Positions 6,537 through 62,991 of a stretch of 64,000 nucleotides of DNA are shown piece by piece. The DNA is from Sphingomonadaceae bacterium (GTDB lineage: Bacteria; Pseudomonadota; Alphaproteobacteria; Sphingomonadales; Sphingomonadaceae): the NCBI GenBank assembly GCA_027533105.1, contig JAPZTW010000008.1, positions 472,684-536,683 on the forward strand. The letters run 5' to 3'. Numbering within the stretch: position 1 is the first letter of the stretch; each line of letters begins with the position of its first letter. Under the pieces are notes generated by a model, which worked only from the letters and a program-made list of their open reading frames with translations, did not search any database and was not told the DNA's origin. Both the position numbers and the translations under genes were made by a program.

Positions 6537-8954
6537 ATGAGCGCTTCGCCAAGCCATCGATCGCGCGGACCCATGGTCGCGGCGATGGTCTCGTTCGTCC
6601 TGGTCGCAGCCTGTGGAGGCAGCGGCGGATCGGTGGGCAGTACCCCGGCCCCCGCGCCGGCGCCCACCCCGACGCCCACGCCTACTCCAACTCCAACACC
6701 GACGCCCAGTCCGACCCCGGGCCCCACGCCGACGCCGACCGCCAGCTTCCTGACCAGCGAATACAACCGGTCGAGCGGGGCGGTCCAGCATGGCGCGCTG
6801 ACCCCCTGGGCGGCGGGCTATAGCGGCACCGGGGTGACGATCGGCATTGTCGATACCGGGATCGATACCGACAGCCCGGAATTTGCCGGTCGGATCCTGA
6901 CCGCCTCGGCCGACGTGGCGGGTAGTCGCGGGCTGGACAATCCCGATAGCGACCATGGCACCAACGTCGCGATGGTGGCCGCTGCCGCGCGCGACGGGAT
7001 CGGCGTGGTCGGCCTGGCGTTCAACGCCAGCATCGCCATGTTCCGTGCCGATTCGCCTGGCACCTGCGCTGTCAACGATCCCAATGATCCCAAGGACGGG
7101 TGCAAGCTGGCGGATTCGGCCATCGCCCAGGGGATCGATCGCGCCGTGGCGGCCGGGGCCAAGGTGATCAATCTCTCGCTGGGCGGATCGATCCCCAGCA
7201 CCGGGCTGCGCGCGGCGGTCTCGCGCGCGGCGGCCGCCGGGGTGGTGGTGATCGTGGCGGCTGGCAACGATGGCGATTCGACCGAGGCCGGGGTCGATCC
7301 CAATAATCCCGATCCCTTTGCCACCGGCCTGCGCCAGGCGGGCAATGGCAATGTCATCATCGTTGGCTCGGTTGACAAGGACAATGCCTTCTCGGTCTTC
7401 TCCAACCGAGCCGGGACCGAGGCCAGCTGGTTCCTCTCCGCCCGGGGCGAGCGGGTCTGCTGCGTCTACGAAGACGGCGTGCTGAAGATTACCACCGATT
7501 CCACCGGCGCGCGGTTCCAGTACGTCTTCTCGGGCACCAGCTTTGCCGCGCCGCAGGTGGCCGGTGCCGTCGCCCTGCTCCGCCAGGCTTTCCCCAACCT
7601 GACCGCCACGCAGGTGGTCGATCTGCTGCTGCGCACCGCCCGCGATGCCGGCGCGGCGGGGACCGACAGCACCTTCGGGCGCGGCCTGCTCGACCTGGCC
7701 GCCGCCTTTGCGCCGCAAGGGGTCACCAGCCTTGCCGGGACGGCCGTGCCGATCCCGGCCGGCGATACCACCGGCGTCACCTCGACCCCGATGGGCGATG
7801 CCGGCCCGCGCGCCGGTTCGATCGAGACGGTCGTGCTCGACAGCTACCAGCGCGCCTATGGGATGGACCTTGCCACCGGCCTGCGCGGTGCGCAGGTCCA
7901 GCCGCGGCTCGGCCCGGCGCTGGCCAGCAATCATCGCAATCTGTCGCTGGGCGGGGGCAAGCTGGCCCTGGCCTTCTCGGTCGATGCGACCGGGCGGGTG
8001 GCGAATCTGCCATGGACCGGCCAGCTGCGGCTGACCCGCGAACAGGCCGAACAGGCCCGGGTGCTCGCCGCCCGCGCGGTGCTGCAACTGGCCCCCGGCC
8101 GCCGGATCGGCTTTGCCTTCGAACAGGGCGCCGATGGCCTGGTCGCCCAGTTGCAGGGGCGGGACCAGCCGGCTTTCCTGATCGCGCGTTCACCGCTCGA
8201 TGACCTGGGTTTCGGCGCCACTGGGCAGGCCAGTTTTGCCTTCCGCGAAAGCCTTGGCCCCTGGGGCCTGACGATCAGCGCCGAGCGCGGCGCGGCCCAG
8301 GCCGGCGCGCAGGTCCGGCTGGCGGATTCGGCGGCCACCTGGCTGCCGGGGGTGCCCGCAACCCGCATCGGTGTGGCCTTCGACCGCCGCTTTGGTGCAC
8401 TCGATGCGGCGCTGGGGGCATCGTGGCTGGTTGAGCGCGATTCCGTCCTTGGCGCCCGGTTCCACCGCGCCTTTGGTGGCAGCGGGGCGGACAGCCTGTT
8501 CCTCGATGCCAGCGCCGGCTGGCAGGTGGCGCCGCAATGGCGGCTGGGCGCGGCCTGGCGCAGCGGCTTCACGGCTCCCCGCGCCGGGGGCCTGATCAGC
8601 AGTGCCTCGCGCCTGGTCACGTCGGCCTGGGCGCTCGACGCCGAACGGCAGGGGGTGTTTTCCGCCAGCGATCGTCTGGCCTTCCGGTTGTCCCAGCCGC
8701 TGCGGGTGGAAAGCGGCGGGCTTTCGCTCGACCTGCCGGTCGACTGGTCCTATGCCACGCTGACGCCGACCTATGGCCGCCGCCTGCTGTCGCTGCGGCC
8801 GAGCGGGCGCGAGCTCGATGCCGAACTGGCCTGGCGCGGCGCGCTGTGGGGCGGCACGGCCAGCGCCAGCCTGTTCTACCGCAAGGATCCGGGGCATTAC
8901 TCCGCCCTGCCGGATGACCAGGGCGCGGGCTTCAGCTGGACGCGCCAGTTCTAG
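6537..8954 (+). CDS. S8 subtilase lipoprotein with Pro-Thr linker and C-terminal beta-barrel-like region
   Basis: LVAAC lipobox; catalytic triad IVDTG, HGT, GTSFAAP; amphipathic beta-strand C-terminus ending in Phe. Confidence 0.88.
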   Translation: MSASPSHRSRGPMVAAMVSFVLVAACGGSGGSVGSTPAPAPAPTPTPTPTPTPTPTPSPTPGPTPTPTASFLTSEYNRSSGAVQHGALTPWAAGYSGTGVTIGIVDTGIDTDSPEFAGRILTASADVAGSRGLDNPDSDHGTNVAMVAAAARDGIGVVGLAFNASIAMFRADSPGTCAVNDPNDPKDGCKLADSAIAQGIDRAVAAGAKVINLSLGGSIPSTGLRAAVSRAAAAGVVVIVAAGNDGDSTEAGVDPNNPDPFATGLRQAGNGNVIIVGSVDKDNAFSVFSNRAGTEASWFLSARGERVCCVYEDGVLKITTDSTGARFQYVFSGTSFAAPQVAGAVALLRQAFPNLTATQVVDLLLRTARDAGAAGTDSTFGRGLLDLAAAFAPQGVTSLAGTAVPIPAGDTTGVTSTPMGDAGPRAGSIETVVLDSYQRAYGMDLATGLRGAQVQPRLGPALASNHRNLSLGGGKLALAFSVDATGRVANLPWTGQLRLTREQAEQARVLAARAVLQLAPGRRIGFAFEQGADGLVAQLQGRDQPAFLIARSPLDDLGFGATGQASFAFRESLGPWGLTISAERGAAQAGAQVRLADSAATWLPGVPATRIGVAFDRRFGALDAALGASWLVERDSVLGARFHRAFGGSGADSLFLDASAGWQVAPQWRLGAAWRSGFTAPRAGGLISSASRLVTSAWALDAERQGVFSASDRLAFRLSQPLRVESGGLSLDLPVDWSYATLTPTYGRRLLSLRPSGRELDAELAWRGALWGGTASASLFYRKDPGHYSALPDDQGAGFSWTRQF
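6642..6740 (+). repeat. Coding low-complexity (PA/PT)n linker repeat
   Basis: TPAPAPAPTPTPTPTPTPTPTPSPTPGPTPTPT with synonymous variation. Confidence 0.85.
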
Positions 8955-8987
8955 ACAGAACGCAGCGCGGCCTGCATGGCGGGTGGC

Positions 8988-10223
8988 ATGACAAGCAAGC
9001 CCATTCCGCGCGCGCTCGAAGGCGTGAAAGTGCTCGACCTGTCGCGCGTTCTCGCCGGTCCGTGGTGCACCCAGATCCTGGCCGATCTGGGCGCCGAGGT
9101 GCTCAAGGTGGAGCATCCCGGCCGCGGCGACGATACGCGCGCCTGGGGCCCGCCGTTCCTCAAGCGGCCCGATGGTTCGGACGATCCCCAGGAAAGCGCC
9201 TATTACCTGTGCACCAACCGCAACAAGCGCTCTGCCGCGATTGACCTGGCGACGCCGGAAGGGGCCGCGCTGATCCGGCGGCTGGCGGCCGAGGCCGACG
9301 TGCTGGTGGAGAACTTCAAGGTCGGCGGCCTCGCCAAGTATGGCCTCGACTATGCCAGCATCGCCGCGATCAACCCGCGGATCGTCTATTGCTCGATCAC
9401 CGGCTTCGGCCAGACCGGCCCCTATACCCAGCGCGGCGGCTATGATTTCGTCGCCCAGGGCATGGGCGGCTTCATGTCGGTAACGGGCGAGGCCGATGGC
9501 GGTCCCTTGCGTGCCGGGGTGGCCATGGCCGATCTTTCAACCGGCAACTTCGCCGCCATCTCGATCCTGGCGGCGCTGCGCCATGCCGAGCGGACCGGCG
9601 AAGGGCAGCAGATCGACATCTCGCTGCTCGATACGCAGATCACGATGATGGCCAACCAGGGCTCGAGCTATCTTGTCAGCGGGGTTGCGCCGGGGCGGCT
9701 GGGCAACCGCCATCCCACCGTGGTGCCCTATACCACCTTCAATGTGGCCGACGGGGTGCTGATCATCGCGGTTGGCAATGACCTGCAGTTCCGCGCCTTC
9801 TGCACCGAAATGGGCGTGCCGGAGCTGGGCACCGACCCGCGCTTTGCCCTCGCGCGGGACCGGCTGGTCAACCGTGACGCGATCGAGGCGATCGTGGCCG
9901 ACCTGGTGAAGGACCACACCCGCGACGCGCTGATCGCCCGGCTGGAAACGGCCGGGGTGCCGGTCGGCCCGGTCAATACGCTGGAAGACGTGTTCAACGA
10001 TCCCTTCGTCGCAGCGCGCGGCACGGTGCACCGGTTCGTGCGCGAGGATGGAGTGGAGATTCCCTCGGTCGCCTATCCCGGCAAGCTCTCGCGCACCCCC
10101 GCGCAGTTCGAACGGCGCCCGCCGCGCGTGGGCGAACACAGCCGCGAACTGCTGGAAGAATGGCTGGGGATGGACGAGGCCGAATTCACCGCCCTGGCCC
10201 AAGCCGGAGCGGTGAAGGGCTGA
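8988..10223 (+). CDS. CaiB/BaiF family III CoA-transferase
   Basis: LEGVKVLDLSRVLAGP, GDDTR, NRNKRS, ENFK motifs (alternative ATG at 8976). Confidence 0.94.
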   Translation: MTSKPIPRALEGVKVLDLSRVLAGPWCTQILADLGAEVLKVEHPGRGDDTRAWGPPFLKRPDGSDDPQESAYYLCTNRNKRSAAIDLATPEGAALIRRLAAEADVLVENFKVGGLAKYGLDYASIAAINPRIVYCSITGFGQTGPYTQRGGYDFVAQGMGGFMSVTGEADGGPLRAGVAMADLSTGNFAAISILAALRHAERTGEGQQIDISLLDTQITMMANQGSSYLVSGVAPGRLGNRHPTVVPYTTFNVADGVLIIAVGNDLQFRAFCTEMGVPELGTDPRFALARDRLVNRDAIEAIVADLVKDHTRDALIARLETAGVPVGPVNTLEDVFNDPFVAARGTVHRFVREDGVEIPSVAYPGKLSRTPAQFERRPPRVGEHSRELLEEWLGMDEAEFTALAQAGAVKG

Positions 10224-10235
10224 CGCCCAGGCCCG

Positions 10236-11309
10236 TTACATCCCGGCCAGCCTGGCGAATTCGGTGGCGCGGTCGACCAGCGGCTGGACCCGGTCCGACT
10301 GGGCCTTGGCATGGGCCGAGCTGGCCGTGCCGTCGATCACCCGCTTCTTGATGCCCTGGAGGATCCCCGCCAGGCGGAAGAAGTTGTAGGCGAACAGCCA
10401 GTTCATGTCGGGCAGGCTGTCACGGCCGGTCTTCGCGGCATAGTGCTCGACCACTTCGGCCAGCTCGGGGATGCCCAGCGCCTTGCGATCGAGGTCCTGC
10501 ACACCCGAGCGGCCGCCGTTATCCGTCACCCAGGCCATGCAGACATAGGAAAAGTCGCCCAGCGGATCGCCCAGGGTGGAAAGCTCCCAGTCGAGCACGG
10601 CCAGCACTTCGGGCTTGTCCTTGGCCCAGATCATGTTGTCGATCCGGTAATCGCCGTGGACCACGCTGGTGCGGGTCTGCTCGGGCAGGGTCTGCGGCAG
10701 CCACTCGATCAGCCGCTCCATGTCGGGCATGTGCTCGGTCTCGGACAGCTTGTACTGCTTGGTCCAGCGATCGACCTGGCGGCCGAAATAGTTCCCCGGC
10801 TTGCCATAGTCGGCAAGGCCAACCGCCTCGACATCGACCGTGTGCAGCGCCGCCAGGGTGTCGATCATCGCGAAATAGGTGTCGCGGCGGTACTGCGGCG
10901 TGGCACCGGGCATGGCCCCGTCCCAGATCGTTTTCCCGTCGACCATGTCCATGATGTAGAACCACGAGCCGACCACGGAGTCGTCCGTGCACAGGCCAAA
11001 CTGGCGCGCCGCCGGAAAGCCCGCCTGGTTGAGCGCGTTCTGGACCTTGTACTCGCGGTCGACCGCGTGCGCGCTGGGCAGCAGCGGGCCGAAGGGCTTG
11101 CGGCGCAGCACGTAATTGCCGCTCGCTGCCTCGATCTTGTAGGTCGGGTTGGATTGCCCGCCCTTGAACTTGGTCAGGTGCAGCGGCCCCTGGAAGCCCG
11201 CCACATTGGCTTGCATCCATTCGGTCAGGCGGGCCTCGTCCAGCTTGTCGGCCCCTTCCGGCTCGACAGTCCCGACAAAGGCTTCATCGGCGTTGATCGC
11301 TTCGCTCAT
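10236..11309 (-). CDS. APH-family phosphotransferase (LvaA / ACAD10-11 kinase-like)
   Basis: FKGGQSNPTY, SAHAVDREY, HGDYRIDN, LDWELSTLG. Confidence 0.92.
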   Translation of the reverse strand: MSEAINADEAFVGTVEPEGADKLDEARLTEWMQANVAGFQGPLHLTKFKGGQSNPTYKIEAASGNYVLRRKPFGPLLPSAHAVDREYKVQNALNQAGFPAARQFGLCTDDSVVGSWFYIMDMVDGKTIWDGAMPGATPQYRRDTYFAMIDTLAALHTVDVEAVGLADYGKPGNYFGRQVDRWTKQYKLSETEHMPDMERLIEWLPQTLPEQTRTSVVHGDYRIDNMIWAKDKPEVLAVLDWELSTLGDPLGDFSYVCMAWVTDNGGRSGVQDLDRKALGIPELAEVVEHYAAKTGRDSLPDMNWLFAYNFFRLAGILQGIKKRVIDGTASSAHAKAQSDRVQPLVDRATEFARLAGM

Positions 11310-26486: not shown

Positions 26487-27720
<1,234 letters not shown>

Positions 27721-27724
27721 CGCC

Positions 27725-28597
27725 ATGGACCGGGCATTCATCAGGCGCGATGAAGGCGTGGCGCTGGCCCTTGCGCTGGCGGCCCATGTCGCGCTGGTGG
27801 CTGTCCTGGCGCTGCAACCGGGGCCAAAGCCGCTGCCCGTGCCCGAGCGGATGACCGTGACGCTGAGCGAGGATGTCGGCCTGACCTCGACCTCGCCCGA
27901 TCCCGCCGCTGCCGCCGCGCCCGACCAGGCACCCGAACTGGGCATGGACGCCACTCCGCCGCCGCCCGCGCCGGTTCCCGCGCCGGCACCTGCTCTGTCC
28001 CAGGCCCGACCGGAACCGGAACCGCGCCCGCTGCCCAAGGTGCAGCCCAGCCCGGCACCCAAGGCGCCGCCGGCCAAGGCCCAGCCTGCCAGGACGCCGC
28101 CGACCAAGGCTCCCGCCGCGAAAGCTCCAGCGACCAAGGCCCCGGTTACCAAGGCTCAGCCGCAGACGCCGCCCAAGGGTCCGGCCGGGGGCAGCCGGAT
28201 CGGCCCCGATTTCCTGAAGGGCACACCCGGCGCCACGGCCACCGGCCCTGCCACCGGCCAGCCCGCCGCCGCGATCGGCCCGGCGGTGCGTTCGGCCCTG
28301 GCCAGCGCGATCTCGCGCCAGTTGAAGCCGCGCTGGGTCGCACCGCAGGGGGCCGAGGCCGAACTGCTGGTCACCGTGCTGACCTGGGATCTCAATCCCG
28401 ATGGCACCCTGGCGGGCAATCCGCGCGTGATCCGGCAGGAAGGGATCACCGATGCCAACCGCGCCCAGGCCGCGCGCCACGCCGAACAGGCAATTCGCGC
28501 GGTCCGGCTGGCTGCGCCGTTCCAGCTGCCCGATGAATTCTACCCCGCCTGGAAGCGGGTTTCCTCGTTCCGTTTTGACAGGAAGTTGTCGCAATGA
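27725..28597 (+). CDS. tolA: TolA-like cell envelope protein
   Basis: N-terminal TM with His, Pro/Ala/Lys-rich stalk, TonB-C-like end; lies between tolR and tolB. Confidence 0.85.
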   Translation: MDRAFIRRDEGVALALALAAHVALVAVLALQPGPKPLPVPERMTVTLSEDVGLTSTSPDPAAAAAPDQAPELGMDATPPPPAPVPAPAPALSQARPEPEPRPLPKVQPSPAPKAPPAKAQPARTPPTKAPAAKAPATKAPVTKAQPQTPPKGPAGGSRIGPDFLKGTPGATATGPATGQPAAAIGPAVRSALASAISRQLKPRWVAPQGAEAELLVTVLTWDLNPDGTLAGNPRVIRQEGITDANRAQAARHAEQAIRAVRLAAPFQLPDEFYPAWKRVSSFRFDRKLSQ

Positions 28598-29979
28598 ACC
28601 GTCTTCGCCTGCTCCCCCTCGCCGTGCTGCTGGCGGCGCCCGCAATGGCGCAGCAATCGACTCCGACACCGCAGCCAACCGTCGCGGTACCGGCCGACGC
28701 CCCGGCCGAAGAAGGATTGACCGGCGAAGTCTCGGATGACAGCGACTGGCAGGACCTGGGCATCGCCATCCCGGCCTTTGCCACCAATGCCGACGTGCCG
28801 ACCGCGACCAGCGCCGGCTCGACCGCCGCGCTTGGCACCAGCCTCGCGCAGATCATCACCGCCAACCTCAAGAGCAATGGCTTGTTCAAGCCGGTCGGCC
28901 CCGAAACCCTGCCGCGCCCGGCCTATGAGGAAGTGCGCGCCCCGGCCTATCAGACCTGGTCGGGCCGCAGTGCGGAAATGCTGGTCCAGGGCTTTGTCCG
29001 TCCCGGCGAGGGCAACCAGCTGCTGGTCGGCTGCTATCTCTATGACGTCGCGCTGAAGCAGCAGCTGGCCAGCGCCGCCTGGCAGGTGGCCCCCACCGAC
29101 TGGCGCCGCGCCGCGCACAAGTGTGCCGACCTCGTCTATGCGCGCCTCTCGGGCGAAAACCCGTTCTTTGACAGCCGGATCGCCTATATCGCCGAAACCG
29201 GGCCGAAGGATCGCCGGATGAAGCGGCTGGCGATCATGGATTCGGACGGGGCGAACCACCGCTATCTGACCACCGGGCAGACGATCGCGCTGACCCCGCG
29301 CTATTCGCCCGATTACAAGTCGATCCTCTATCTCAGCTATTTCAACGGCCAGCCGCGGATCTACATCTACGATCTTGAGCGCAACAGCCAGCGGCTGCTG
29401 CTGCAGACCAGCAATCCACTGTTCGCGCCGCGCTGGTCGCCCGATGGCAAGTGGGTGCTCTATTCGATGGCCTCGGGCGGCAATACCGACATCTACAAGA
29501 TGCCGTCGAGCGGCGGCGCGGCGGTGCGGCTGACCGATGCGCCGGGGATCGACATCGGCGGCAGCTTCTCGCCCGACGGCAAGCGGATCGTCTTCGAAAG
29601 CGACCGGTCGGGTAGCCAGCAGGTCTATGTGATGAACATCGATGGCACCGACCAGCGCCGGATCAGCTTCTTCGGCGGCCGCTCGGCCACGCCCGAATGG
29701 AGCCCGCGCGGCGATCAGATCGCTTTCACCCACATTGCCGGCAACCTGCGCATCGCGGTGATGGACCCCAGCGGCAAAGGCATGCGCTATCTGACCGATT
29801 CGTGGCAGGACGAGGCGCCGACCTGGGCCCCCAATGGCCGGATCGTGCAATTCTTCCGCACGGCGCGCGGCAGCGGCAAGGCCTCGCTGTGGCAGGTCGA
29901 CCTGACCGGGCGCAACGAACGCCGCCTGCCAACCCCGGTCGATGGCTCCGACCCCGCCTGGGGACCGCTGCGGCCCTGA
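28594..29979 (+). CDS. tolB: TolB
   Basis: AHKCADLVY, FDSRIAYI, PD40 repeats (PRWSPDG, FSPDG, WAPNG). Confidence 0.95.
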   Translation: MNRLRLLPLAVLLAAPAMAQQSTPTPQPTVAVPADAPAEEGLTGEVSDDSDWQDLGIAIPAFATNADVPTATSAGSTAALGTSLAQIITANLKSNGLFKPVGPETLPRPAYEEVRAPAYQTWSGRSAEMLVQGFVRPGEGNQLLVGCYLYDVALKQQLASAAWQVAPTDWRRAAHKCADLVYARLSGENPFFDSRIAYIAETGPKDRRMKRLAIMDSDGANHRYLTTGQTIALTPRYSPDYKSILYLSYFNGQPRIYIYDLERNSQRLLLQTSNPLFAPRWSPDGKWVLYSMASGGNTDIYKMPSSGGAAVRLTDAPGIDIGGSFSPDGKRIVFESDRSGSQQVYVMNIDGTDQRRISFFGGRSATPEWSPRGDQIAFTHIAGNLRIAVMDPSGKGMRYLTDSWQDEAPTWAPNGRIVQFFRTARGSGKASLWQVDLTGRNERRLPTPVDGSDPAWGPLRP

Positions 29980-30106
29980 GGTGCCCGTTTGGTGACCCTG
30001 GTGTGCCTGCCGAGGGTTGACCGTGTGTACCTTAAAGGCCAGTTCAAGGACCGTTCAGGCGCTGGTGCCGACAGTTTTCCCGTCAGGGATGCAACAGGAG
30101 ACAACG

Positions 30107-30622
30107 ATGACTGACAAGCGCATTTCCGTTGCCGCCGTGCTGGCGGTCAGCCTCGTCCTTGGCGCTTGCGCGGGCAAGGCCCCCAAGACCCTGCCGCCAG
30201 ATCCGGGCGGTGCCGTTTCCACCGCCGCCACTGACGGTGGCAGCACCGGCCCCGTACCCGGCAGCCAGGCCGATTTCGTGGCCCAGATGATGGGTCAGGA
30301 TTCGATCTACTTCGACACCGACCGCTTCAACATCGACAGCGCCGACATGGCCGCGCTGCAGGCCCAGGCCACCTGGCTGGCCCGCTATCCGGCCAAACGC
30401 GCGACGATCGAGGGCCACGCCGACGAACGCGGCACCCGTGAATACAACCTGGCCCTGGGCGAACGCCGCGCCAATGCCGCCAAGAACTACATGGTGAGCC
30501 TGGGCATCGATGCGGCCCGGCTCAACACCATCAGCTATGGCAAGGAACGCCCCGTCGCGCTCGGCTCGGACGAGGCAAGCTGGGCCAAGAACCGCCGCGC
30601 GGTAACCGTTACGATTGACTGA
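30107..30622 (+). CDS. pal: Peptidoglycan-associated lipoprotein
   Basis: LGAC lipobox; IEGHADERGTREYNLALGERRA; KNRRA. Confidence 0.96.
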   Translation: MTDKRISVAAVLAVSLVLGACAGKAPKTLPPDPGGAVSTAATDGGSTGPVPGSQADFVAQMMGQDSIYFDTDRFNIDSADMAALQAQATWLARYPAKRATIEGHADERGTREYNLALGERRANAAKNYMVSLGIDAARLNTISYGKERPVALGSDEASWAKNRRAVTVTID

Positions 30623-54036: not shown

Positions 54037-54877
54037 GGGGCTGTCAGAGCAAATGCACCGCCTGATATGAGCTAAGTCGCAGGGTAGGGCCGGTCGATGC
54101 CTCGTCCCCGCAAACCTGCCAGCCCGTTCCGCTATTTCAACTCCTCGCCCGAGGTGATCCGCCTTGTGGTGATGATGTATGTCAGGTTTCCCCTGAGCTT
54201 GCGGAACGTCGAGGACCTGCTGTTTGAGCGCGGGATCGACATCTGCCATGAGACCGTGCGCATGTGGTGGAACCGGTTCGGCCCGCTGTTCGCTGGTGAC
54301 ATCCGTCGGCAGCGAGTGAGCCGGGTGCGCGGCTTCCGGCAGTGGCGCTGGCATCTTGACGAGATGTACGTGAAGCTTGGTGGCGAGATGGTTTACCTGT
54401 GGCGCGCGGTCGATCAGGAGGGCGAGATCCTGGAGAGTTTCGTGACGACGTCACGTGACAAGGCGGCTGCGTTGGCCTTCATGAAGAAGGCGCTAAAGCG
54501 TCATGGATCACCCGAGAGGATCACAACCGATGGCCTGCGCTCGTACAAGGCGGCGATGACTGAGCTTGGCAACGCGGACAAACAGGAGATCGGCCGCTGG
54601 GCCAATAATAGGGTCGAGAACAGCCACCTCTCGTTCCGACGACGTGAGCGAGCGATGCTCCGCTTCAGGCGGATGAAGTCGCTACAGAAGTTCGCCTCAG
54701 TCCACGCCAACGTGCACAATCACTTCAACCAGGAACGTCATCTCGTAGATCGACAGACTTACAAAGAACGCCGCTCGGTCGCTCTGGCCGAGTGGCAGAG
54801 CCTTATGGCCTGATCCCGCCTTCGCAAAGGCGGAGCTCCGCCAATCTGAGACTAATTGCGATTAGACTGACAGCACC
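54037..54877 (+). mobile_element. IS6-family insertion sequence
   Basis: Imperfect IRs GGGGCTGTCAG / GGTGCTGTCAG; no target duplication. Confidence 0.85.
54097..54813 (+). CDS. tnp: IS6-family transposase
   Basis: WHLDEMY, YLWRAVD, TTDGLRSY, NNRVENSH DDE motifs. Confidence 0.93.
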   Translation: MPRPRKPASPFRYFNSSPEVIRLVVMMYVRFPLSLRNVEDLLFERGIDICHETVRMWWNRFGPLFAGDIRRQRVSRVRGFRQWRWHLDEMYVKLGGEMVYLWRAVDQEGEILESFVTTSRDKAAALAFMKKALKRHGSPERITTDGLRSYKAAMTELGNADKQEIGRWANNRVENSHLSFRRRERAMLRFRRMKSLQKFASVHANVHNHFNQERHLVDRQTYKERRSVALAEWQSLMA

Positions 54878-54944
54878 GATGTACGCCGCCGAAGATGTCG
54901 TCGCGGCCACCCGGGCGGTCCAGCGGAGCCTGACCGATGCATGA
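54878..54944 (+). pseudogene. 3' stub of a gene cut by the IS6 right end
   Basis: GC3-rich frame YAAEDVVAATRAVQRSLTDA* whose stop overlaps the gtdA start. Confidence 0.45.
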
Positions 54945-56004
54945 AGCCCAGCCCCATCCGCCGCTGGCGAACGACCAGCGCGCCCAGCTCGAAACCCTCT
55001 ATGACGAGATGCGGCCGCGGCACCTCTATCCCTTGTGGGAGGTGCTGAGCGCCCTCGTCACGCCCGAACCGCAGACCCGGGCGGTGCCCGCCAAGTGGGC
55101 CTATGACGACGTGCGCGGTTACCTGCTGCGCGCCGGCGATCTGATCAGCGCCGAACAGGCTGAGCGCCGGGTGGTGATCCTGGAGAATCCCGGCTTGCCC
55201 GGCGAATCCGCGATCACGCCGCGGCTCTATGCCGGCCTGCAGCTGGTCCTGCCGGGCGAGATCGCGCCTTGCCACCGCCACAGCCAGTCGGCCCTGCGCT
55301 TCATCATGGAAGGTGACGGCGCCTATACCGCGGTCGATGGCGAAAAGGCCTTCATGAAGCAGTTCGACCTGATCCTGACGCCCAACTGGCGCTGGCACGA
55401 TCACGGCAACCCCTCGAACAATCCGATCATCTGGCTCGACGGGCTGGATATCCCGACGATCCGCGCGCTGGATGCCCAGTTTGCCGAGCGGCTGGACGAG
55501 TTGAGCCATCCCGAGACCGAACCGGCTGGCAGCAACCGCGCCAAGTTCGGCCGGGGGCTGCGTCCGCTGCGGGCGGGATCGCAGCGCCACGAAGTCCCGC
55601 GCGAGCCGCTGTTCCACTATCCCTATGCCGAATGGTCCGCCTCGCTCGAGGCGCTGGCCGCCAGCGAAGCCCCCGATCCGCACATCGGCCATGCGCTGGA
55701 ATTCCTCAACCCGGCCACCGGCGGATCGGTGATGCCGACCATTTCGGCCCATGTCCGCCTGCTGCCGGCCGGGTTCGAGACCCGCCCGCGCCGCTCGACC
55801 GAAAGCGCGGTCTTCACCGTGATCGAGGGCGAGGGCGAAGTGCAGATCGGCACGGAAACCTATCGGCTGGCCCCGCGCGACATGGTCGTCGTGCCGAGCT
55901 GGGCCGAGACCCGCTGGCGGGCGGACAGCAAGCTGGTGCTGTTTGCCTATACCGATCGCGTCATTCAGGAAAAACTCTGCCTCTACCGGGAGCACTGCGC
56001 ATGA
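54937..56004 (+). CDS. gtdA: Gentisate 1,2-dioxygenase
   Basis: AERRVVILENPG, LYAGLQL, CHRHSQSALRF, WHDHGN, WLDGLD bicupin. Confidence 0.9.
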   Translation: MHEAQPHPPLANDQRAQLETLYDEMRPRHLYPLWEVLSALVTPEPQTRAVPAKWAYDDVRGYLLRAGDLISAEQAERRVVILENPGLPGESAITPRLYAGLQLVLPGEIAPCHRHSQSALRFIMEGDGAYTAVDGEKAFMKQFDLILTPNWRWHDHGNPSNNPIIWLDGLDIPTIRALDAQFAERLDELSHPETEPAGSNRAKFGRGLRPLRAGSQRHEVPREPLFHYPYAEWSASLEALAASEAPDPHIGHALEFLNPATGGSVMPTISAHVRLLPAGFETRPRRSTESAVFTVIEGEGEVQIGTETYRLAPRDMVVVPSWAETRWRADSKLVLFAYTDRVIQEKLCLYREHCA

Positions 56005-56696
56005 ACCTGCTGTTTGAACCTGCCGCCCCTGTCATCGCTCCAACCGCCACCGGCGCCGGGTTCCCGGTGCGGCGGATCTTCTGCATCGGCCGCAATTACG
56101 AGGAACACGCCAAGGAGATGGGCATGCAGGCCGATCCCGAGGCCCCGTTCTTCTTCACCAAGTGGGCCGAAACGCTGGTCGGCGATGGCGCGACCATCGC
56201 CTATCCCCAGGGCACCGAGAATTTCCATTACGAGGCCGAACTGGTCGTCGCGATCGGCCGGGGCGGGCGCAATATCCCGGCCAGCGAAGCCATGGACCAC
56301 GTCTGGGGCTATGCCTGCGGGCTCGACATGACCCGCCGCGATCTGCAGGCCGAAGCGCGCGCCAAGGGCCGCCCGTGGGATTCCGGCAAGAACGTGGAGC
56401 AATCATCGCCGCTCGGCCTGATCCATCCGGTCGAAGTGCTGGGCGATGCCACCAGGGGCGCGATCACCCTGACCGTCAACGGCGCGGTCAGGCAGCAGGG
56501 CGATCTGGCCGATCTGATCACCCCGGTCGACCGCCTGATCGCCTATCTCTCCAGCCTCTATCGGCTGGAGGCGGGGGACCTCATCTATACTGGCACCCCG
56601 GCCGGGGTTGGCGCCGTCGTGCCGGGCGACGTGATGGTGGTGGCAATCGATGGCCTATCCCCGCTCACGATCACGGTCGGACCGCTGGCGGAATGA
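56001..56696 (+). CDS. Fumarylpyruvate hydrolase (FAH family, NagK-like)
   Basis: RRIFCIGRNYEEH, HYEAEL, DMTRRD, GDLIYTGTPAGVG; ATGA overlap. Confidence 0.88.
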   Translation: MNLLFEPAAPVIAPTATGAGFPVRRIFCIGRNYEEHAKEMGMQADPEAPFFFTKWAETLVGDGATIAYPQGTENFHYEAELVVAIGRGGRNIPASEAMDHVWGYACGLDMTRRDLQAEARAKGRPWDSGKNVEQSSPLGLIHPVEVLGDATRGAITLTVNGAVRQQGDLADLITPVDRLIAYLSSLYRLEAGDLIYTGTPAGVGAVVPGDVMVVAIDGLSPLTITVGPLAE

Positions 56697-57328
56697 TTGC
56701 CCACCTCCACGGCTTCTTCCGCTCCAGCGCCTCGTGGCGGGTGCGGATTGCCCTGGCGCTGAAAGGGATCGACTACGCCCAGTCGACCTACAAGCTGCGC
56801 GCGGGGGAACAGCGGAGCGCAGCCTTCCTGCGGCTCAACCCGCAGGGGCTGGTTCCCGCGCTGGAGATCGACGGCGCGGTGCTGACCCAGTCGCTGGCGA
56901 TCATCGAATACCTGGACGAAACAGTGGCCGAACCGCCGCTGTGCGGCACCACGCCGCTGGAACGGGCGCGGATCAGGGCCTTTGCCCTGGCCATCGCCTG
57001 CGAAACGCACCCGCTGCAGAACCTGCGGGTGCTGAACCGGATCGCTGCCCTGACCGGCCGCGAGGAAGCCGGGCAGGACTGGGCGCGGGAGGTCAATCAC
57101 GAGGGGCTTGCCGCCTGCGCCGCCCTGCTGCCTGATGCCGACACGCCATTCTGCTTTGGCGACCGACCGACGCTGACGGATATCTGCCTGGTGCCGCAGC
57201 TGGCCAATGCGCGGCGCTTTGGCGTGGCGATCGCGTGGCCTCGGCTGGCCGCGATAGAGGCCAATTGCCTGGCCTTGCCCGCCTTTGCCGATACCGCCCC
57301 GCAAACCCAGCCCGATTACGCCGCCTGA
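56693..57328 (+). CDS. maiA: GSH-dependent maleylpyruvate/maleylacetoacetate isomerase (GST zeta)
   Basis: FRSSASWRVRIAL, NPQGLVP, QSLAIIEYL, HPLQNL. Confidence 0.9.
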   Translation: MIAHLHGFFRSSASWRVRIALALKGIDYAQSTYKLRAGEQRSAAFLRLNPQGLVPALEIDGAVLTQSLAIIEYLDETVAEPPLCGTTPLERARIRAFALAIACETHPLQNLRVLNRIAALTGREEAGQDWAREVNHEGLAACAALLPDADTPFCFGDRPTLTDICLVPQLANARRFGVAIAWPRLAAIEANCLALPAFADTAPQTQPDYAA

Positions 57329-57405
57329 CAGCATCCAGTCGCGCTGCCGCTGCTTCCTGCCTGTCTTGATTGCGCCGCAAGCCTCGCGGTGTTGCTATCG
57401 CCCGG

Positions 57406-58098
57406 CTAACCGCCGCCGGGCATGGTCATCCGATAGCCGACCCCTGGCTCAGTGATGATGATCCGGGGGTTCGACGGGTCGACTTCGATCTTCTGCCGCA
57501 GCATGCTGATGTAGATCCGCAGATACTGCATGTCCGCATTCTCGCTGCCCCAGACCTTGGCCAGCAGGCTCTTGTGGGTGGTAACCCGCCCGACGTTGCT
57601 CGACAGCTCTCTGATCAGGGCGAACTCCTTGGGGGAGGTATTCACCCTCTCGCCCATGAACATGATTTCGCGGTCGGCGAGATTGATCGAGAGGTTGTCG
57701 TAACTGAGAATGCCGTGGCCGCGACCGATGTTCTGGGATCGCCGGATCGCGGCCCGGACCCGGGCGAGCAGTTCGCCAATTTCGAAGGGCTTGTCGACGT
57801 AGTCATCAGCTCCCGCGTCGAGGGCAGCGATCTTCTCGTTTTCCTGATGCCGGGCAGAGATCACGATGATCGGCACATTGCTGGACAGCCGGATTTCGTG
57901 GATGGCCTGTTTCCCATCCATGTCGGGCAAGCCCAGGTCGAGCAGCACCAGGTCATGCGCCGCCGTTCGTGCCGCCGTAATCGCAGAGGAACCGTCGCCG
58001 ACGACAGTGACCGCAAACCCCGCCGCCTCAAGGGTGGGTGTCAAGGCTGCGACCAGGGCCGGCTCATCATCAACCAGGAGCACCGCATTGCCCACCAT
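57406..58098 (-). CDS. KdpE-like response regulator
   Basis: LVLLDLGLPDMDG, SAR, GADDYVDKPF, YLRIYISMLRQKIE, TEPGVGY. Confidence 0.92.
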   Translation of the reverse strand: MVGNAVLLVDDEPALVAALTPTLEAAGFAVTVVGDGSSAITAARTAAHDLVLLDLGLPDMDGKQAIHEIRLSSNVPIIVISARHQENEKIAALDAGADDYVDKPFEIGELLARVRAAIRRSQNIGRGHGILSYDNLSINLADREIMFMGERVNTSPKEFALIRELSSNVGRVTTHKSLLAKVWGSENADMQYLRIYISMLRQKIEVDPSNPRIIITEPGVGYRMTMPGGG

Positions 58099-58101
58099 GG
58101 T

Positions 58102-59583
58102 TCAGCCTAGTGGGAGCGCGGGCAGATTGATCGTGACGGCCGTGCCCCTGTTGCCGATGACAGGGGACTGAACATCGATCGAGCCGCCGGACACTTCCAC
58201 AAATCCCTTCGCAATGGCGAGGCCCAGGCCGCTGCCTCTGGGCGATTTCTCGGTTCGCTTGACCCGGTAGAAGCGCTCAAAAACCTTTGCCTGTTCGTTT
58301 AAGGGGATGCCAATCCCCTGGTCAATCACGGACACGACGCAAAGCCTCTCCACCAGCGACACGTCAATATCGACCCGCGTTCCGGGCTCGCTGTAATTGC
58401 AGGCATTTTCGAGCAGGTTCAGCAAGGCGAGCTCGAGCAGGTAGAAATCGACTTTCACAAAGACATCTTCGCTGAAGATGTTGACGTTGATGCGCCGGTC
58501 AGGCTCGCGAGAGCGGAACCGGTCCGCAACCGAATTGACCACATCGAGGATGGAAACGGCCTCGATGTTCAGGTGGCGCGAGGCCGACTGCATGCGGCTG
58601 AGTTCAAGAATGTTGGTGGTCAGCCGGTTGAGCCGGTCACATTCGCTGACAATCCCGGACAGCAGTTTCTGCGACGTGGCGGGGTCAAAGCTGTCGCCAT
58701 ATTCGATCAGACTGGAGGCCGAGGTCCTGATGGTTGTGATCGGCGTTCGAATGTCGTGGCTTACCGATGCCAGCAGGGTGGATTTCAGTTCTTCGGCATG
58801 AACCCGTGCCTTGGCTTCATAGACTTCGCTCGATAGCCTGATCCGTTCGAAGGCGAGGCCCACAATCTGCGCCAGCGCCAGCAGGAAATTCTCGGCAACG
58901 GGGCCATCAACGGTCTTGTCGATGACCATGATGCCCACGGTCGAATCCAGGCCAGGCAAGCGAAAGGCGGTCATGCCCGGCCGTGCCACGCTTTCCTGGG
59001 CTGACGCGCGTGCGGCTTGCGCCGCCTCGGCCAAGACGGTCTCCGCGCCGGCCTCGCCGATCGCCACCAGAGCGTCGTTCTCGACCTTGAAGAGCCTGAT
59101 GCGTGCGCCCTGCAGGATGGGTACGCCGCTATCGATGCTGGCGCACAATTCGTCCTCGCTCGCGGCGCGTTGCAGGCTGCGGCTGGTGGCCAGCAGGCTT
59201 TGCAGTTGCAGATTGGCCTCGCTCAATCGAACGGCGCGGTCGTGCAGGCGGCCGGACAGGAGGCCTGATACCAGGGCCGCGGCGGCGAAGATCGCCGGTG
59301 GGGCCAGATCATCGCCGGTCGCCAGGCGGAAGGCCAGCGGCGGATCGGCAATAAAGAAGTTGAAGATCAGCGACGATACCACGGCGCAGGCCAGCGCGGG
59401 CAGCAGTCCGGAATTTGCGCCAACCAGCATGATGCCGATGACGAAGAACAGGCCGCCTGACACTTCGCCGTAAAGGAGCGACTTGAGATTTGCCGCCAGC
59501 ACCGTTGAGGCCAGCACGACGATGATCGACAGCTGCCAGGCACCCGATTGCTGTGACGAGGCTGCTTTCGAATTCTTCAACAA
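58102..59583 (-). CDS. KdpD-like sensor kinase (DUF4118-GAF-like-HisKA-HATPase) lacking the KdpD N-terminal domains
   Basis: FNFFIADP TM block; SVSHDIRTP H-box; NLLENA, DQGIG, GSGLGLA; TTG start. Confidence 0.88.
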   Translation of the reverse strand: MLKNSKAASSQQSGAWQLSIIVVLASTVLAANLKSLLYGEVSGGLFFVIGIMLVGANSGLLPALACAVVSSLIFNFFIADPPLAFRLATGDDLAPPAIFAAAALVSGLLSGRLHDRAVRLSEANLQLQSLLATSRSLQRAASEDELCASIDSGVPILQGARIRLFKVENDALVAIGEAGAETVLAEAAQAARASAQESVARPGMTAFRLPGLDSTVGIMVIDKTVDGPVAENFLLALAQIVGLAFERIRLSSEVYEAKARVHAEELKSTLLASVSHDIRTPITTIRTSASSLIEYGDSFDPATSQKLLSGIVSECDRLNRLTTNILELSRMQSASRHLNIEAVSILDVVNSVADRFRSREPDRRINVNIFSEDVFVKVDFYLLELALLNLLENACNYSEPGTRVDIDVSLVERLCVVSVIDQGIGIPLNEQAKVFERFYRVKRTEKSPRGSGLGLAIAKGFVEVSGGSIDVQSPVIGNRGTAVTINLPALPLG

Positions 59584-59613
59584 GTCGGCTGTCCCGGATC
59601 CAGTCGAATCACG

Positions 59614-59823
59614 TCATTTCTTTTGCTGGGTGGATGTTTTCACCTGCTCGCCAAGCGAAGTGTAAGTCGAGGACACCATATCCCCGAGGTCCTGCAGGAT
59701 GAAGAAAATGGCCATGCAGATGAGACCGAGAACCAATCCGTACTCGATCGTTGCCGTGCCGCGATTGTTGCGGGCCAGCTTCGTGGCTGCATTCTTTAAT
59801 ACGTGCTTGGCGTGTCGCAGCAT
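59614..59823 (-). CDS. flp: Flp family type IVb pilin
   Basis: Basic leader, G|TATIEYGL cleavage/Flp motif, hydrophobic helix, 69 aa. Confidence 0.85.
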   Translation of the reverse strand: MLRHAKHVLKNAATKLARNNRGTATIEYGLVLGLICMAIFFILQDLGDMVSSTYTSLGEQVKTSTQQKK

Positions 59824-60305
59824 CGCAAGAGCCTTTTTCCATCCTTCTTAATGCACGAACCCCTTTTTCGGGACACGTACGAACATAAACGTACATTAGA
59901 TAGTGCAGGGAATGAAAAACGCTATTCCCAGAAAGCTCCATTACAGAATATGTGCCCGCAATGTCCATGGATATAAAAACTATAAAAATCCCATACTCCA
60001 ATCCAATACATAAGTATTTTAGCTTATTACGTACTTTTGATCTGTGCTCATCAGATCAATCCGTAAAATGCTTTATACTTGGTGATTTGGGCGGGGTGGG
60101 GCGGCATGGGGCGCCAGCAGGAGGAGGTTATCGGCAGCTGCACCCTGCACGGTCCGGCCTGACGCCGGGCGCGCCGTTGTTGCAAAAGGGTGACATGGCG
60201 CAGCTTCCCGGCCCTGCGCACAGCCGGCGCGACTGCTGCCCGCGGTATCGGAATCGCTACCGCGAAGCGGTGCCGACCGACTCCTGTATCGGCAGGGTCA
60301 GCCGC

Positions 60306-61232
60306 TCAGTTCAAACGACCGTTCCGCGCCTTGGTCATTTCGTGGAGCTGCGCGAAGCCGGGTGTGGCGATGGCGCTTTCCTTCGCCAGGCGCAGAACCG
60401 CTCCCGGCAGGTAGTCGTATTCGGAGCCCGCGTTCGAGAGAGCGTCGCGCTGGAGCGAGGTCGTTGCCGTTCGCGGGAAGCTGGCTGCAAATGCCAGCGC
60501 TCCGGCGATATCCGCCGATGCGATCTGAATGCCTCGGGCTTGGGCAACCGCCTGCACTTCCTGCATGGCCACCTTGAGCATCGTGCCGGCTTCGCTGTGA
60601 TGGGCCACCTCTCCGGCCGGAATGCCATAAGCGAGGGCAACCGTGCCGAGGGAAGCTGCGAGGAGAAACTTCTGCCACAGGCTGGTCTCGATGCTTGCAG
60701 AAACCCTTGCCTGGATCCCTGCCCGTTTGAGCAGATCGGCAACCGCAGCAGCGCTTTCGCGGGGATCGGGGCCAATCGCGCCAAGTTCCAGTGACGGTTC
60801 AACGCCAACGTGCCGAACTTCGTCGCCCGCCAGCTCAAAGAACCCGTGGACCCGGCTGGCAAGGATCGCTGCATCCGGAAAGCGCGCCGCCGCCATGGCT
60901 GGCGCGTCGACCCCATTCTGGACGGTAAGCAGCACGGTTCGTGGCCCGATGGCGGGTGCGGCAAGCTCAAGCGCCTCGGCAAAGCTGGACATCTTCGTGC
61001 AGATGATGACCAGGCCGGCTTCAACGCCTGCAACCGGAGCGGCGGCTACCGGCACATTCTTCTGGACGACCGATTGTCCTATCGACACCCGCAGGCCCTG
61101 CGTTTGCAGGTTGAGCAGGCGAGCGCCCCGCGCCAGCAACAGCATCGGATTGTCGAGCGAACTCAGCCTGAGGGCAAGGAACGAGCCGATCGCCCCGGCG
61201 CCAATTACCAGTATGGGGTCGGTATCATTCAT
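60306..61232 (-). CDS. panE: 2-dehydropantoate 2-reductase (PanE/ApbA family)
   Basis: VIGAGAIG, CTK, QNGV, LWQKF, SLQRD, SEYD. Confidence 0.85.
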   Translation of the reverse strand: MNDTDPILVIGAGAIGSFLALRLSSLDNPMLLLARGARLLNLQTQGLRVSIGQSVVQKNVPVAAAPVAGVEAGLVIICTKMSSFAEALELAAPAIGPRTVLLTVQNGVDAPAMAAARFPDAAILASRVHGFFELAGDEVRHVGVEPSLELGAIGPDPRESAAAVADLLKRAGIQARVSASIETSLWQKFLLAASLGTVALAYGIPAGEVAHHSEAGTMLKVAMQEVQAVAQARGIQIASADIAGALAFAASFPRTATTSLQRDALSNAGSEYDYLPGAVLRLAKESAIATPGFAQLHEMTKARNGRLN

Positions 61233-61668
61233 GGCGAACCCTGCTTCCAATCCGGATGCTTGCGCCTTGCATTAGCCTAACCCGGGCCTGCAGGCATCGG
61301 GCAATTGCAGCTTCAGGCGCCGATAACGCCATCGCCGGTAGCCGAAGCGGCGCGCGGCAAGGCGATCGCGCCGGGTCCGCTCCCGTCCTTACTGCCACAT
61401 CGCGCATGGGCTGCTTATAACAAAAGTTGCTTTATCAAAACTGACGGCAAGGGCTGGCGATCAAGGTGATCCAATATACGGAGTTTCCGATAAAATATGT
61501 TCCTTTTTCCAACATTTCAAGGCCGAGCTTGACCAGAACATGGTGCTTATTTAAGAAAACAAATGACATAAAAGCCGTGACGGCTGGCTTCCGGTGCAGC
61601 GGCGGCGTGACGCGTCACGCGGCCACTACCGCGCAGGTTTCGGGCACGGGGCGCAAAGGAGTGACGAA

Positions 61669-62991
61669 GTGGCGGGAATGGCAACGAAGCGCGGCGGGTT
61701 CTGGCAGCGGCTTGGCGCGGCGGCGCTGCTTTCGTCCGCGTTGAGCACCCCGGTTCAGGCCCAATCGGCCGACACCTGCCGGCGGACCGGTCCGCAGGCA
61801 GTGGCCAGCTACAACTACATTCTCGGCACCCAGGCGATCGGCGGGCGCTATCGCTTCACCAAGGACAGTCCGCTGCTGGAGGAGGCCGAGGTGATCCGCA
61901 CGATGGGCTCCAACCTGCTGAAGCTGTCCTTCGCGAAGGGGGCGGCGGCGCGGTACGGTAGCGTTGCGGCGGCAGGCAAGGCGCGCTCGACCCTCGAATA
62001 TGTCAAGGCCGCGCCCGAGGTGCAGCGCGCCCTCGACATGGATTTCAAGTACTATCAGGCCTGGGTGCACTCCTACACCGAGGCCAACTGGCGCGACGGG
62101 GTCACCAAGGCGGAAGCGCGGCTGTACTATGATGAAATGTATCAGCTTTCCGCCTGGCTGCTGGCCCGCTACTCGGGGTCGGGCAAGGTCTTCATGCTGG
62201 GCAACTGGGAGGGTGACTGGCTGCTCCATGGCTCGCAAGGGCGAGATTCCACGCCCAGCCCGGTCGCGATCCAGGGCATGATCGACTGGCTGAACATTCG
62301 CCAGAAGGCGATCGATGATGCCAAGGCTGCGGTAAAGCACCGCGATGTCGGGCTGTATCACTATGTCGAGGTCAACCTGGTCAAGAAGGCGATGGCGGGC
62401 AAGCCGAGCATTGCCTTCAGCGTCCTGCCCGAGACCAACGTCGATCTGGTGTCCTATTCCAGCTATGAAGCGATCAAGAAGTCGCAAGTGCCCGATCTTG
62501 CCTCGATCAGGCAGCCGCTGACCGAGATCATGCAATACCTTGAGGGGCAGTTGCGGCCCAAGCCGGGTCTGCCGTTCAGTCGGCGCGTGTTCATCGGCGA
62601 ATATGGCTATCACGCGAACCGGGCCAAGCCGGAGACCATCAGTCAACAGTACCTGAAGAGCCGCTACGTGATGCAGGTGGCAATCGAACTCGACCTGCCC
62701 TTCGCCCTGATCTGGCAGGTGTACAACAACGAGTATACGCCCGACGGAACATCGAAGGAGATGTCGCTGATCGACGAGAGCGGCCAGAAGCGCGAACTGT
62801 ACTATCTCAACCAGCAATACCTGCGCGAGATGAAGGCATTCGTCGCCGACAGCTGCCAGCGCGCCGGCACCCTGCCCACGCGCGAGGCGTTCAAGGGCAA
62901 GGCCCTGGAGGTGCTGGAGTCGCTGACCTTCGAACGGATGCAGCAGGCTGCGCTGAACGGCGGCGTGGCGGCGGGGGCAACCCGGCCATAG
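61669..62991 (+). CDS. Secreted hypothetical protein, GH-A clan TIM-barrel-like
   Basis: AAGGAG then GTG; signal peptide; LGNWEGD and FIGEYG candidate catalytic Glu; next to a TBDR. Confidence 0.75.
   Translation: MAGMATKRGGFWQRLGAAALLSSALSTPVQAQSADTCRRTGPQAVASYNYILGTQAIGGRYRFTKDSPLLEEAEVIRTMGSNLLKLSFAKGAAARYGSVAAAGKARSTLEYVKAAPEVQRALDMDFKYYQAWVHSYTEANWRDGVTKAEARLYYDEMYQLSAWLLARYSGSGKVFMLGNWEGDWLLHGSQGRDSTPSPVAIQGMIDWLNIRQKAIDDAKAAVKHRDVGLYHYVEVNLVKKAMAGKPSIAFSVLPETNVDLVSYSSYEAIKKSQVPDLASIRQPLTEIMQYLEGQLRPKPGLPFSRRVFIGEYGYHANRAKPETISQQYLKSRYVMQVAIELDLPFALIWQVYNNEYTPDGTSKEMSLIDESGQKRELYYLNQQYLREMKAFVADSCQRAGTLPTREAFKGKALEVLESLTFERMQQAALNGGVAAGATRP

Follow-up and report, generated by a model that had tools for sequence, protein, structure and literature searches.

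The subject of this analysis is a three-gene unit within a 64,000-nucleotide stretch of DNA (the window) from a Sphingomonadaceae bacterium (assembly GCA_027533105.1, genome G000). The window spans C8:472684-536683, where C8 is contig JAPZTW010000008.1. The unit encodes an Flp-type pilin, a sensor histidine kinase (HK) and a response regulator (RR), and surveyed loci and genomes are given below as L and G numbers. We consider it probable, with moderate confidence, that the unit is a mobile, self-regulated cassette, in which a KdpDE-type two-component system of a genome without Kdp drives an accessory Flp pilin gene. A functional link between flp and the two-component genes is supported by genome comparison, and the best-supported direction appears to run from the regulator to flp. 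The original prediction for this DNA had taken the pilin to be the input of the kinase, as its membrane ligand or as a reporter of the activity of the Tad machine. The evidence points instead to flp as the output, because flp is preceded by a conserved KdpE-box-like element with no other copy in the genome and because the regulator keeps the DNA-contact residues of KdpE. The features are listed here in window coordinates:

57397..60027 (no strand): mobile cassette of ~2.6 kb with the elements, flp, kinase and regulator genes
57406..58098, minus strand: regulator gene; 230 aa, OmpR-family, KdpE-like, with Response_reg and Trans_reg_C domains (Pfam)
58102..59583, minus strand: kinase gene; 493 aa, TTG start, a sensor histidine kinase corresponding to the C-terminal half of KdpD
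59584..59613, minus strand: flp-kinase spacer; 30 nt, in frame with both genes, with a single TGA
59614..59823, minus strand: flp; 69-aa Flp-type (type IVc) prepilin; Gly-ended leader of 22 aa, mature part TATIEYGL... of 47 aa
59962-59986: island 2; TTTATAGTTTTTATATCCATGGACA, perfectly conserved in the alignment of lineages with flp first
59963..59989, minus strand: 27-nt AT-rich element; ATTTTTATAGTTTTTATATCCATGGAC, overlapping island 2 and likewise perfectly conserved in that alignment, half-sites 11 bp apart, candidate KdpE-box-like operator
60010..60027, minus strand: island 1; ATAAGCTAAAATACTTAT, an ATAAG-N8-CTTAT inverted repeat (ATAAGyTAmAATACTTAT in the alignment)

A conserved element upstream of the pilin gene

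All three genes are intact and lie on the minus strand, with 3 nt between the kinase and regulator genes. G+C falls to 41% at 59800-60099, the 300 nt upstream of flp, against ~65% around it. The gene calls and this value agree with the original description of a co-oriented trio with gaps of 30 and 3 bp behind AT-rich DNA.

The upstream DNA was aligned between two lineages that carry flp ahead of the kinase gene (flp-first lineages), with 70% identity between their Flp proteins. It has diverged save for two perfectly conserved islands, of which island 1 marks the upstream limit of similarity between the two lineages. Island 2 is colinear, at 21 of 27 positions, with the sequence GTTAyTATAGGTTTTTTATGCATGGAC. 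This sequence was found ahead of the kinase gene, identically oriented, in every examined locus with a divergent gene for a Pal-like lipoprotein (L030, L031, L032, L069, L073, L074 and L076), and the element is thereby conserved across kinases that are only 40-53% identical. A matrix was built from nine sites, with L090-L093 held out, and the element was found at the expected place in all four held-out loci. Across the whole 2.87-Mb genome the matrix gave a single match, which lies before flp and scores 46; the next best scores 16.

In the window, the element is followed by 139 nt and the flp ATG, and the end of flp by 30 nt and the kinase start; in relatives, the element is separated from the kinase start by 64-134 nt. 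Since flp is placed between the element and the kinase gene, it occupies the leader of the kinase operon as its predicted first cistron.

The element has half-sites of the TTATAG/TTTAT type with 11-bp spacing. The published KdpE box is TTTATA-N5-TTTACA, and KdpE reads its DNA with R193, R200 and T215 (PMC3264566). Because the regulator of the window keeps these contact residues and the half-sites have a KdpE-like spacing, we infer that the 27-nt element is the operator of the regulator, predicted to overlap or adjoin the operon promoter. Boxes of this type were also found where flp follows the two-component genes (HK-RR-flp loci). In L067 and L068, the interval from the regulator gene to flp contains exact TTTATA-N5-TTTATA boxes, and similar repeats precede the kinase gene. 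A search of whole genomes for the exact box gave a single match in G224 (4.8 Mb), in this interval, and three in G218, of which one is in this interval. A reversed-pattern control of the KdpE-type box gave 0 matches.

Two further matches to the element were recorded. The next-best match in the present genome (C13:160441-160461, score 16.4) contains a GATTTTTTTGCA half-site ~100 nt upstream of a tandem orphan flp pair (C13:160.5-161.0 kb); it is too weak to use and could be due to chance. In genome G084, a second copy of the element (L069:7310-7336, score 30.8) lies just after the regulator gene and ~30 nt upstream of a gene for a 561-aa CPA2/Kef-like cation antiporter. NhaA genes are found near the two-component system in L090 and L093, and together with the antiporter gene they hint at a regulon for ion homeostasis.

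A KdpDE-derived pair without the potassium pump

The kinase carries the Pfam domains DUF4118 (18-121), HisKA and HATPase_c. As originally predicted, it lacks the N-terminal part of KdpD: neither the KdpD N-terminal domain (PF02702) nor Usp was found in it by Pfam, and the match to the NCBIfam KdpD model (147 bits, cut-off 1123) covers only positions 406-881 of the 895-position model. For the regulator, the best NCBIfam family is KdpE (207 bits, cut-off 325). It aligns over its full length with the E. coli KdpE structure 4kny (E 2.5e-53) and retains R193, R200 and T215 together with the phospho-acceptor Asp. As the model match is partial and the scores are far under the equivalog cut-offs, the pair is, by homology, a descendant of KdpDE that is not itself KdpDE. 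No match to KdpA was obtained anywhere in the genome, which is 99.8% complete; the original remark that no kdpFABC genes are nearby therefore holds genome-wide for KdpA. The genome has neither a full KdpD nor a second DUF4118 kinase.

The AlphaFold model of the kinase part has four transmembrane (TM) helices, a small alpha/beta (GAF-like) domain, a DHp domain and a catalytic domain. The alpha/beta domain comprises ~140 aa in the cytoplasm between the membrane part and DHp, and is homologous to the GAF region of KdpD. The H-box reads SHDIRTP, the catalytic motifs are nearly invariant in the family alignment, and there is almost no periplasmic loop. The 4-TM input claimed in the original prediction is present as the DUF4118 bundle; it is incomplete as a description, because the GAF-like domain in the model means that the membrane bundle is not the only input.

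The likeness to E. coli KdpD/KdpE extends from the C-terminal half of the kinase (DUF4118 4-TM bundle, GAF, HisKA and HATPase) to the regulator, whose best match is KdpE in both NCBIfam and the Protein Data Bank, and to the predicted operator, which is AT-rich with TTTATA-type half-sites 11 bp apart, as in the KdpE box. The present system differs in the missing KdpD N-terminal and Usp domains, the sub-cut-off scores and the absence of kdpA from the genome. Whereas KdpDE targets a K+ pump, the neighbour and probable target here is a pilin, or a Pal-like lipoprotein in relatives.

Recurrence among relatives

The nearest named relatives of the genome are Novosphingobium, and the survey covered the Sphingomonadales. 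Kinases 40-53% identical to the present one were found in 8 of the 151 genomes of a family sample and 17 of the 401 of an order sample, scattered in Sphingomonadaceae. The flp-HK-RR order is shared with L029 (kinase 98% identical), with Novosphingobium sp. LE17-10A (G423, kinase 87% identical) and with several metagenome contigs. A scan of close-relative contigs with the kinase alone gave only one true relative. Neighbouring genes were then counted at 31 species-level loci outside the present lineage:

17 of 31 loci: gene for a Pal-like OmpA lipoprotein (~170 aa, TIGR02802 139 bits) beside the HK-RR pair, divergent upstream or downstream
5 of 31 loci: co-oriented flp directly after the regulator gene (L062, L065, L067, L068 and L075, from five other Novosphingobium species)
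9 of 31 loci: neither a Pal-like gene nor flp beside the HK-RR pair

These loci suggest a Sphingomonadaceae-wide family, defined by a short KdpD-like kinase, a KdpE-like regulator, a putative operator before the kinase gene and a Pal-like peptidoglycan-binding lipoprotein as the usual neighbour. The neighbourhood survey proposed with the original prediction showed that the adjacency of flp and the kinase is not unique to this genome, as it recurs both as flp-HK-RR and as HK-RR-flp; in this respect the prediction stands.

In the kinase tree, a well-supported Novosphingobium clade contains two groups. The first holds the Pal-type loci L030 and L031 and, on a long stem, the present flp-first lineage. 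The second has eight members, five of which are HK-RR-flp loci, and no flp remnants were detected in its three loci without flp. The linked flp genes belong to three subtypes (that of the present lineage, that of L062/L065/L075 and that of L067/L068), indicating that the link was made or remade more than once. Genes of the Tad type also occur after the regulator gene: in L031, a Pal-type locus from a Novosphingobium metagenome-assembled genome, the regulator gene is followed (7312-10958) by a 116-aa open reading frame (ORF), a TadG-like gene (PF13400) and two TadE-like genes. Homologues of these tad genes are located at C13:75.5-78.6 kb of the present genome, away from any such two-component system.

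Relocation of the cassette

DNA similarity to G423 amounts to 86.8% over 2385 bp (window 57397-59777). At the lower end it stops 9 nt past the regulator stop codon, and at the upper end it is limited by the end of the G423 contig inside flp; the upstream edge of the cassette was taken from the alignment of the two flp-first lineages. The flank in G423 matches the present genome elsewhere (C8:265.9-271.8 kb, 94% identity), and the window flanks were not found together in G423. By these alignments, the elements and the three genes occupy different chromosomal sites in two related species and were relocated or acquired as a unit, and relocation as one unit argues that the parts of the block work together.

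An IS3-type ORF is present upstream of flp in the other lineage, and an IS6 transposase gene lies 2.6 kb downstream in the window. No clean empty site was found, since related genomes either lack the window flanks (gentisate-pathway genes and panE) or have diverged versions of them; this places the cassette in accessory DNA.

The pilin and its genome context

The flp product has the prepilin motif RG/TATIEYGL followed by a hydrophobic helix. Its Pfam Flp_Fap score of 26.7 bits (E 4.9e-6) is under the gathering score of 32.2 bits, and two other Flp genes of the genome score at about the same level, also under the cut-off. The product shows the characters of an Flp pilin, namely a Gly-ended leader cut at ...NNRG/TATIEYGLVLGLICMAIFFILQ..., an xxxxEY motif, the hydrophobic helix and a mature part whose 47 aa fall within the 40-60 aa of such pilins. 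It represents an unusual subtype (LVLGLICMAIFFILQ..., basic tail), distinct from the four other Flp genes of the genome. A homologue search returned five clusters, all from the same narrow lineage, with a word-based method that is insensitive for a 69-aa protein.

In comparison with the orthologue that is 70% identical at the protein level, the ratio of nonsynonymous to synonymous substitution rates (dN/dS) of flp is 0.06 in the mature part (46 codons) and 0.74 in the leader. For the same pair of lineages it is 0.19 in the kinase and 0.10 in the regulator. The difference between leader and mature part is the usual pattern for a processed prepilin, and by these ratios flp is a genuine gene that is under selection. 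The dS between the two flp-first lineages is 1.2-1.8 for flp vs 0.36-0.41 for kinase and regulator, a ~3-4x difference in a small sample. Weaker codon bias might explain the higher value, as might an evolutionary history that the 5' part of the cassette does not share with the rest.

Five Flp-type genes are present in the genome, and four of them are orphans. The single complete Tad locus (C8:75.7-87.2 kb) encodes Flp, RcpC/CpaB, a secretin, a TadG-like protein, TadE, a ParA-like protein, CpaF (T2SSE ATPase), TadB and an A24 prepilin peptidase. The peptidase and Tad genes that accompany Flp pilins are thus found in the same genome, not adjacent to the flp of the window. As had been noted from the start, no tad, cpa or peptidase genes occur within the window, and its flp is an orphan 445 kb from the Tad locus. 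One of the other orphan flp genes (MMIWKNCCG/TTAIEYGF...), at a contig end outside the window (G000 C11:182.5-187.6 kb), adjoins genes for an H-NOX (haem-NO-binding) protein, a hybrid histidine kinase, a LuxR-type regulator and a receiver-MarR protein. With this orphan, two of the five flp genes of the genome adjoin signalling modules.

Proposed mechanism

No terminator-like site was found on the coding strand, such sites being present only on the opposite strand. The fold of the flp-kinase spacer is no better than that of shuffled sequence (z-score +0.94), an Rfam scan of 57000-60600 gave nothing, and a sigma-70 consensus scan gave no promoter-like site. Co-transcription of flp, kinase and regulator genes is predicted and considered likely.

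In the proposed mechanism, the kinase would sense a membrane or cytoplasmic cue via its 4-TM bundle and GAF-like domain. The likeliest cue would be ionic, K+ or envelope-related, given the KdpD ancestry and the antiporter genes near the systems of relatives (L069, L090 and L093). The kinase would then phosphorylate the regulator, which would bind the 27-nt element and alter transcription of the flp-HK-RR operon. The A24 peptidase would cut the prepilin and, as we infer, the Tad machine 445 kb away would take the Flp, adding or swapping a pilus subunit.

Several points weigh against this mechanism. The second half-site of the element (TATATC at 11 bp, or TTTATA at 9 bp) makes an imperfect KdpE box, and a promoter function or binding by another factor could also account for the element. 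No such box precedes flp in L062, L065 and L075, three of the five HK-RR-flp loci. Cells normally make far more of a major pilin than of a kinase, and it is unusual for a bulk structural subunit to share an operon with a kinase gene when no attenuator separates the two. Finally, the recurrence was established within a single order.

Alternative explanations

We considered whether the kinase is gated by the pilin. The pool of pilin or prepilin in the membrane would bind the DUF4118 4-TM bundle and tune the balance of kinase and phosphatase activities, so reporting the pilin level or the activity of the Tad machine, in the manner of PilA with PilS or PleC. This is compatible with transcriptional control of flp, and the two together would form a feedback loop. 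The link to flp is recurrent and independent of gene order, and the cassette moves as one, both of which speak for functional coupling. With almost no periplasmic loop, the kinase would offer intramembrane sensing surfaces. The absence of an attenuator would be more in keeping with a regulatory partner expressed together with the kinase than with a subunit made in bulk, and the Flp subtype of the window is unlike the other four of the genome. There is also a published precedent in Caulobacter, where the N-terminal helix of PilA, a Flp-type pilin, binds a TM helix of the kinase PleC (PMC7196804). Most family members, however, are without flp and are paired with a Pal-like lipoprotein, and the kinase therefore needs no pilin. 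The membrane domain has also diverged in an ordinary manner. Its identity to the nearest Pal-type kinase is 57%, against 67% for DHp and 54% for the catalytic domain, and the GAF-like domain is the most variable part at 34%. On balance we regard a pilin-gated kinase as unlikely.

Acceleration specific to the membrane domain was looked for in the flp-linked kinases and was not seen; divergence there tracks the rest of the protein. The natural read-through product, a single Flp-W-linker-kinase chain that served as a stand-in for the complex, was modelled with AlphaFold from a 61-row alignment. The Flp helix had a predicted local distance difference test (pLDDT) score of 51-61, the tail and linker scored <50, and the predicted TM-score (pTM) was 0.46. 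The model thus confirmed the kinase architecture, and its low confidence for the Flp part counts neither for nor against binding.

A combined form can be envisaged, in which Flp would be both the output and an intramembrane ligand whose N-terminal helix is bound by the DUF4118 bundle, making the cassette a portable "pilin homeostat / surface sensor" of the Tad system. To our knowledge, no ligand of the DUF4118 4-TM bundle is known, even in KdpD. We give this form a small chance only. If true, it would be a type IVc counterpart of PilA-PilS-PilR that is movable between genomes, and would supply the first defined ligand class for DUF4118.

The flp gene might also be a passenger, an orphan inserted by chance into the leader of an envelope- or ion-sensing two-component operon with which it has no functional tie. 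The accessory DNA around it, the IS6 transposase 2.6 kb away and the IS3-type ORF upstream of flp in the other lineage are consistent with such an event. The same can be said of the frequency of orphan flp genes in this genome (4 of 5), and of the base composition and divergence of the 5' part, since flp and the DNA before it have a lower G+C content and a higher dS than the two-component genes. Against this, the arrangement and the strong purifying selection on mature Flp have persisted through divergence and relocation of the block, and at least two further independent links to flp or tad genes occur in related systems. KdpE-type boxes stand right before flp in L067 and L068, and the box is unique in G224. 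With ~5 flp among ~3000 genes, chance adjacency would be expected at ~0.3% per operon; it was seen in 5 of the 31 species-level loci and in the present lineage as well. A chance passenger appears quite improbable to us.

The last alternative concerns the reading frame shared by flp and the kinase gene, which are separated by one TGA (then C) and 10 sense codons (59584-59616). In the second lineage the frame is also shared, across a different spacer of 33 nt (11 codons) that likewise has no extra stop. Occasional read-through of the in-frame UGA-C would yield a pilin-kinase fusion protein. We consider this extremely unlikely: a shared frame in two related lineages has a chance of ~0.2, the spacer peptide is not conserved between them, HK-RR-flp relatives are unable to make such a fusion, and the topology is wrong for one, the C-terminus of type IV pilins being periplasmic and the N-terminus of DUF4118 in KdpD cytoplasmic.

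Comparison with known systems

Two-component systems beside flp/tad clusters that activate flp have been described as ECA0785/ECA0786 in Pectobacterium (PMC3767616) and PprA/PprB in Pseudomonas aeruginosa (PMC6821963). As in the present case, a kinase-regulator pair is encoded beside flp, and the Pectobacterium regulator is also of the OmpR type. The pair switches on the pilin in those systems; here the pair is adjacent to flp, and its predicted operator lies before flp. A complete tad machine is flanked there, in contrast to the orphan flp of the window, 445 kb from its machine. The present flp also differs in lying inside the operon of the regulator itself, downstream of its predicted operator, in being joined to a KdpD-like DUF4118 kinase, and in belonging to a unit that is mobile.

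A pilin gene is likewise genetically tied to a membrane kinase in PilS-PilR/PilA of P. aeruginosa and PleC/PilA of Caulobacter, where a TM helix of the kinase is bound by the N-terminal helix of the pilin. The sensor domain of PilS has six TM helices, and PilR is an NtrC-type regulator. The sensor domain of PleC is periplasmic, and PleD/DivK act below PleC (PMC7196804). The present pair differs from both in its 4-TM DUF4118 sensor and KdpE-like regulator, with no homology to the PilS or PleC sensors and no PilR-type regulator. A more general likeness exists to the small membrane proteins MgrB and SafA, which are feedback regulators of the kinase PhoQ; neither is a pilin or a substrate of a prepilin peptidase. 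As with these proteins, Flp is a small single-helix membrane protein that would be in the regulon of a system it could modulate, and such feedback by Flp is at present hypothetical.

The original claim that no described system has this layout agrees with the literature searched, in which the layout itself had no match. It needs to be set beside the published OmpR-type systems next to flp/tad that activate flp (PMC3767616; PMC6821963). No paper joining DUF4118, histidine kinase and pilin was found, and among the top results there was no report of KdpD for Sphingomonadaceae, Novosphingobium or Sphingomonas. KdpDE-type signalling and two-component control of Flp pilins are known kinds of system. 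New, to the extent of the literature search, are the Kdp-less family with its putative operator and the mobile flp-first cassette.

The favoured reading, in which the regulator controls an accessory pilin gene, would define a Sphingomonadaceae family of KdpDE-derived systems that have no K+ pump and are wired to envelope and surface genes (Pal-like lipoprotein, Flp pilin). Since the candidate operator is sharply defined, the regulon is directly testable. It would also imply that accessory pilin genes are able to spread separately from the pilus machine, in cassettes that regulate themselves, and would give bacteria one possible way of adjusting the composition of their pili to signals. The compact three-gene system lends itself to asking about feedback of Flp on the kinase and about sensing by the DUF4118 membrane domain.

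Neighbouring genes in the window

The Pal-like paralogue that accompanies the two-component family elsewhere was not found in the present genome, and the tol-pal cluster proper (TolR, TolA, TolB and Pal) is located at window 27202-30622. At window 54097-57328, a gene for an IS6-family (DDE_Tnp_IS240) transposase stands beside a gentisate-type catabolic set, which converges on the regulator gene and consists of a bicupin dioxygenase, an FAA hydrolase and a zeta-class glutathione S-transferase/maleylpyruvate-type isomerase. On the other side of the cassette, window 61594-62991 holds a 465-aa ORF with no Pfam match.

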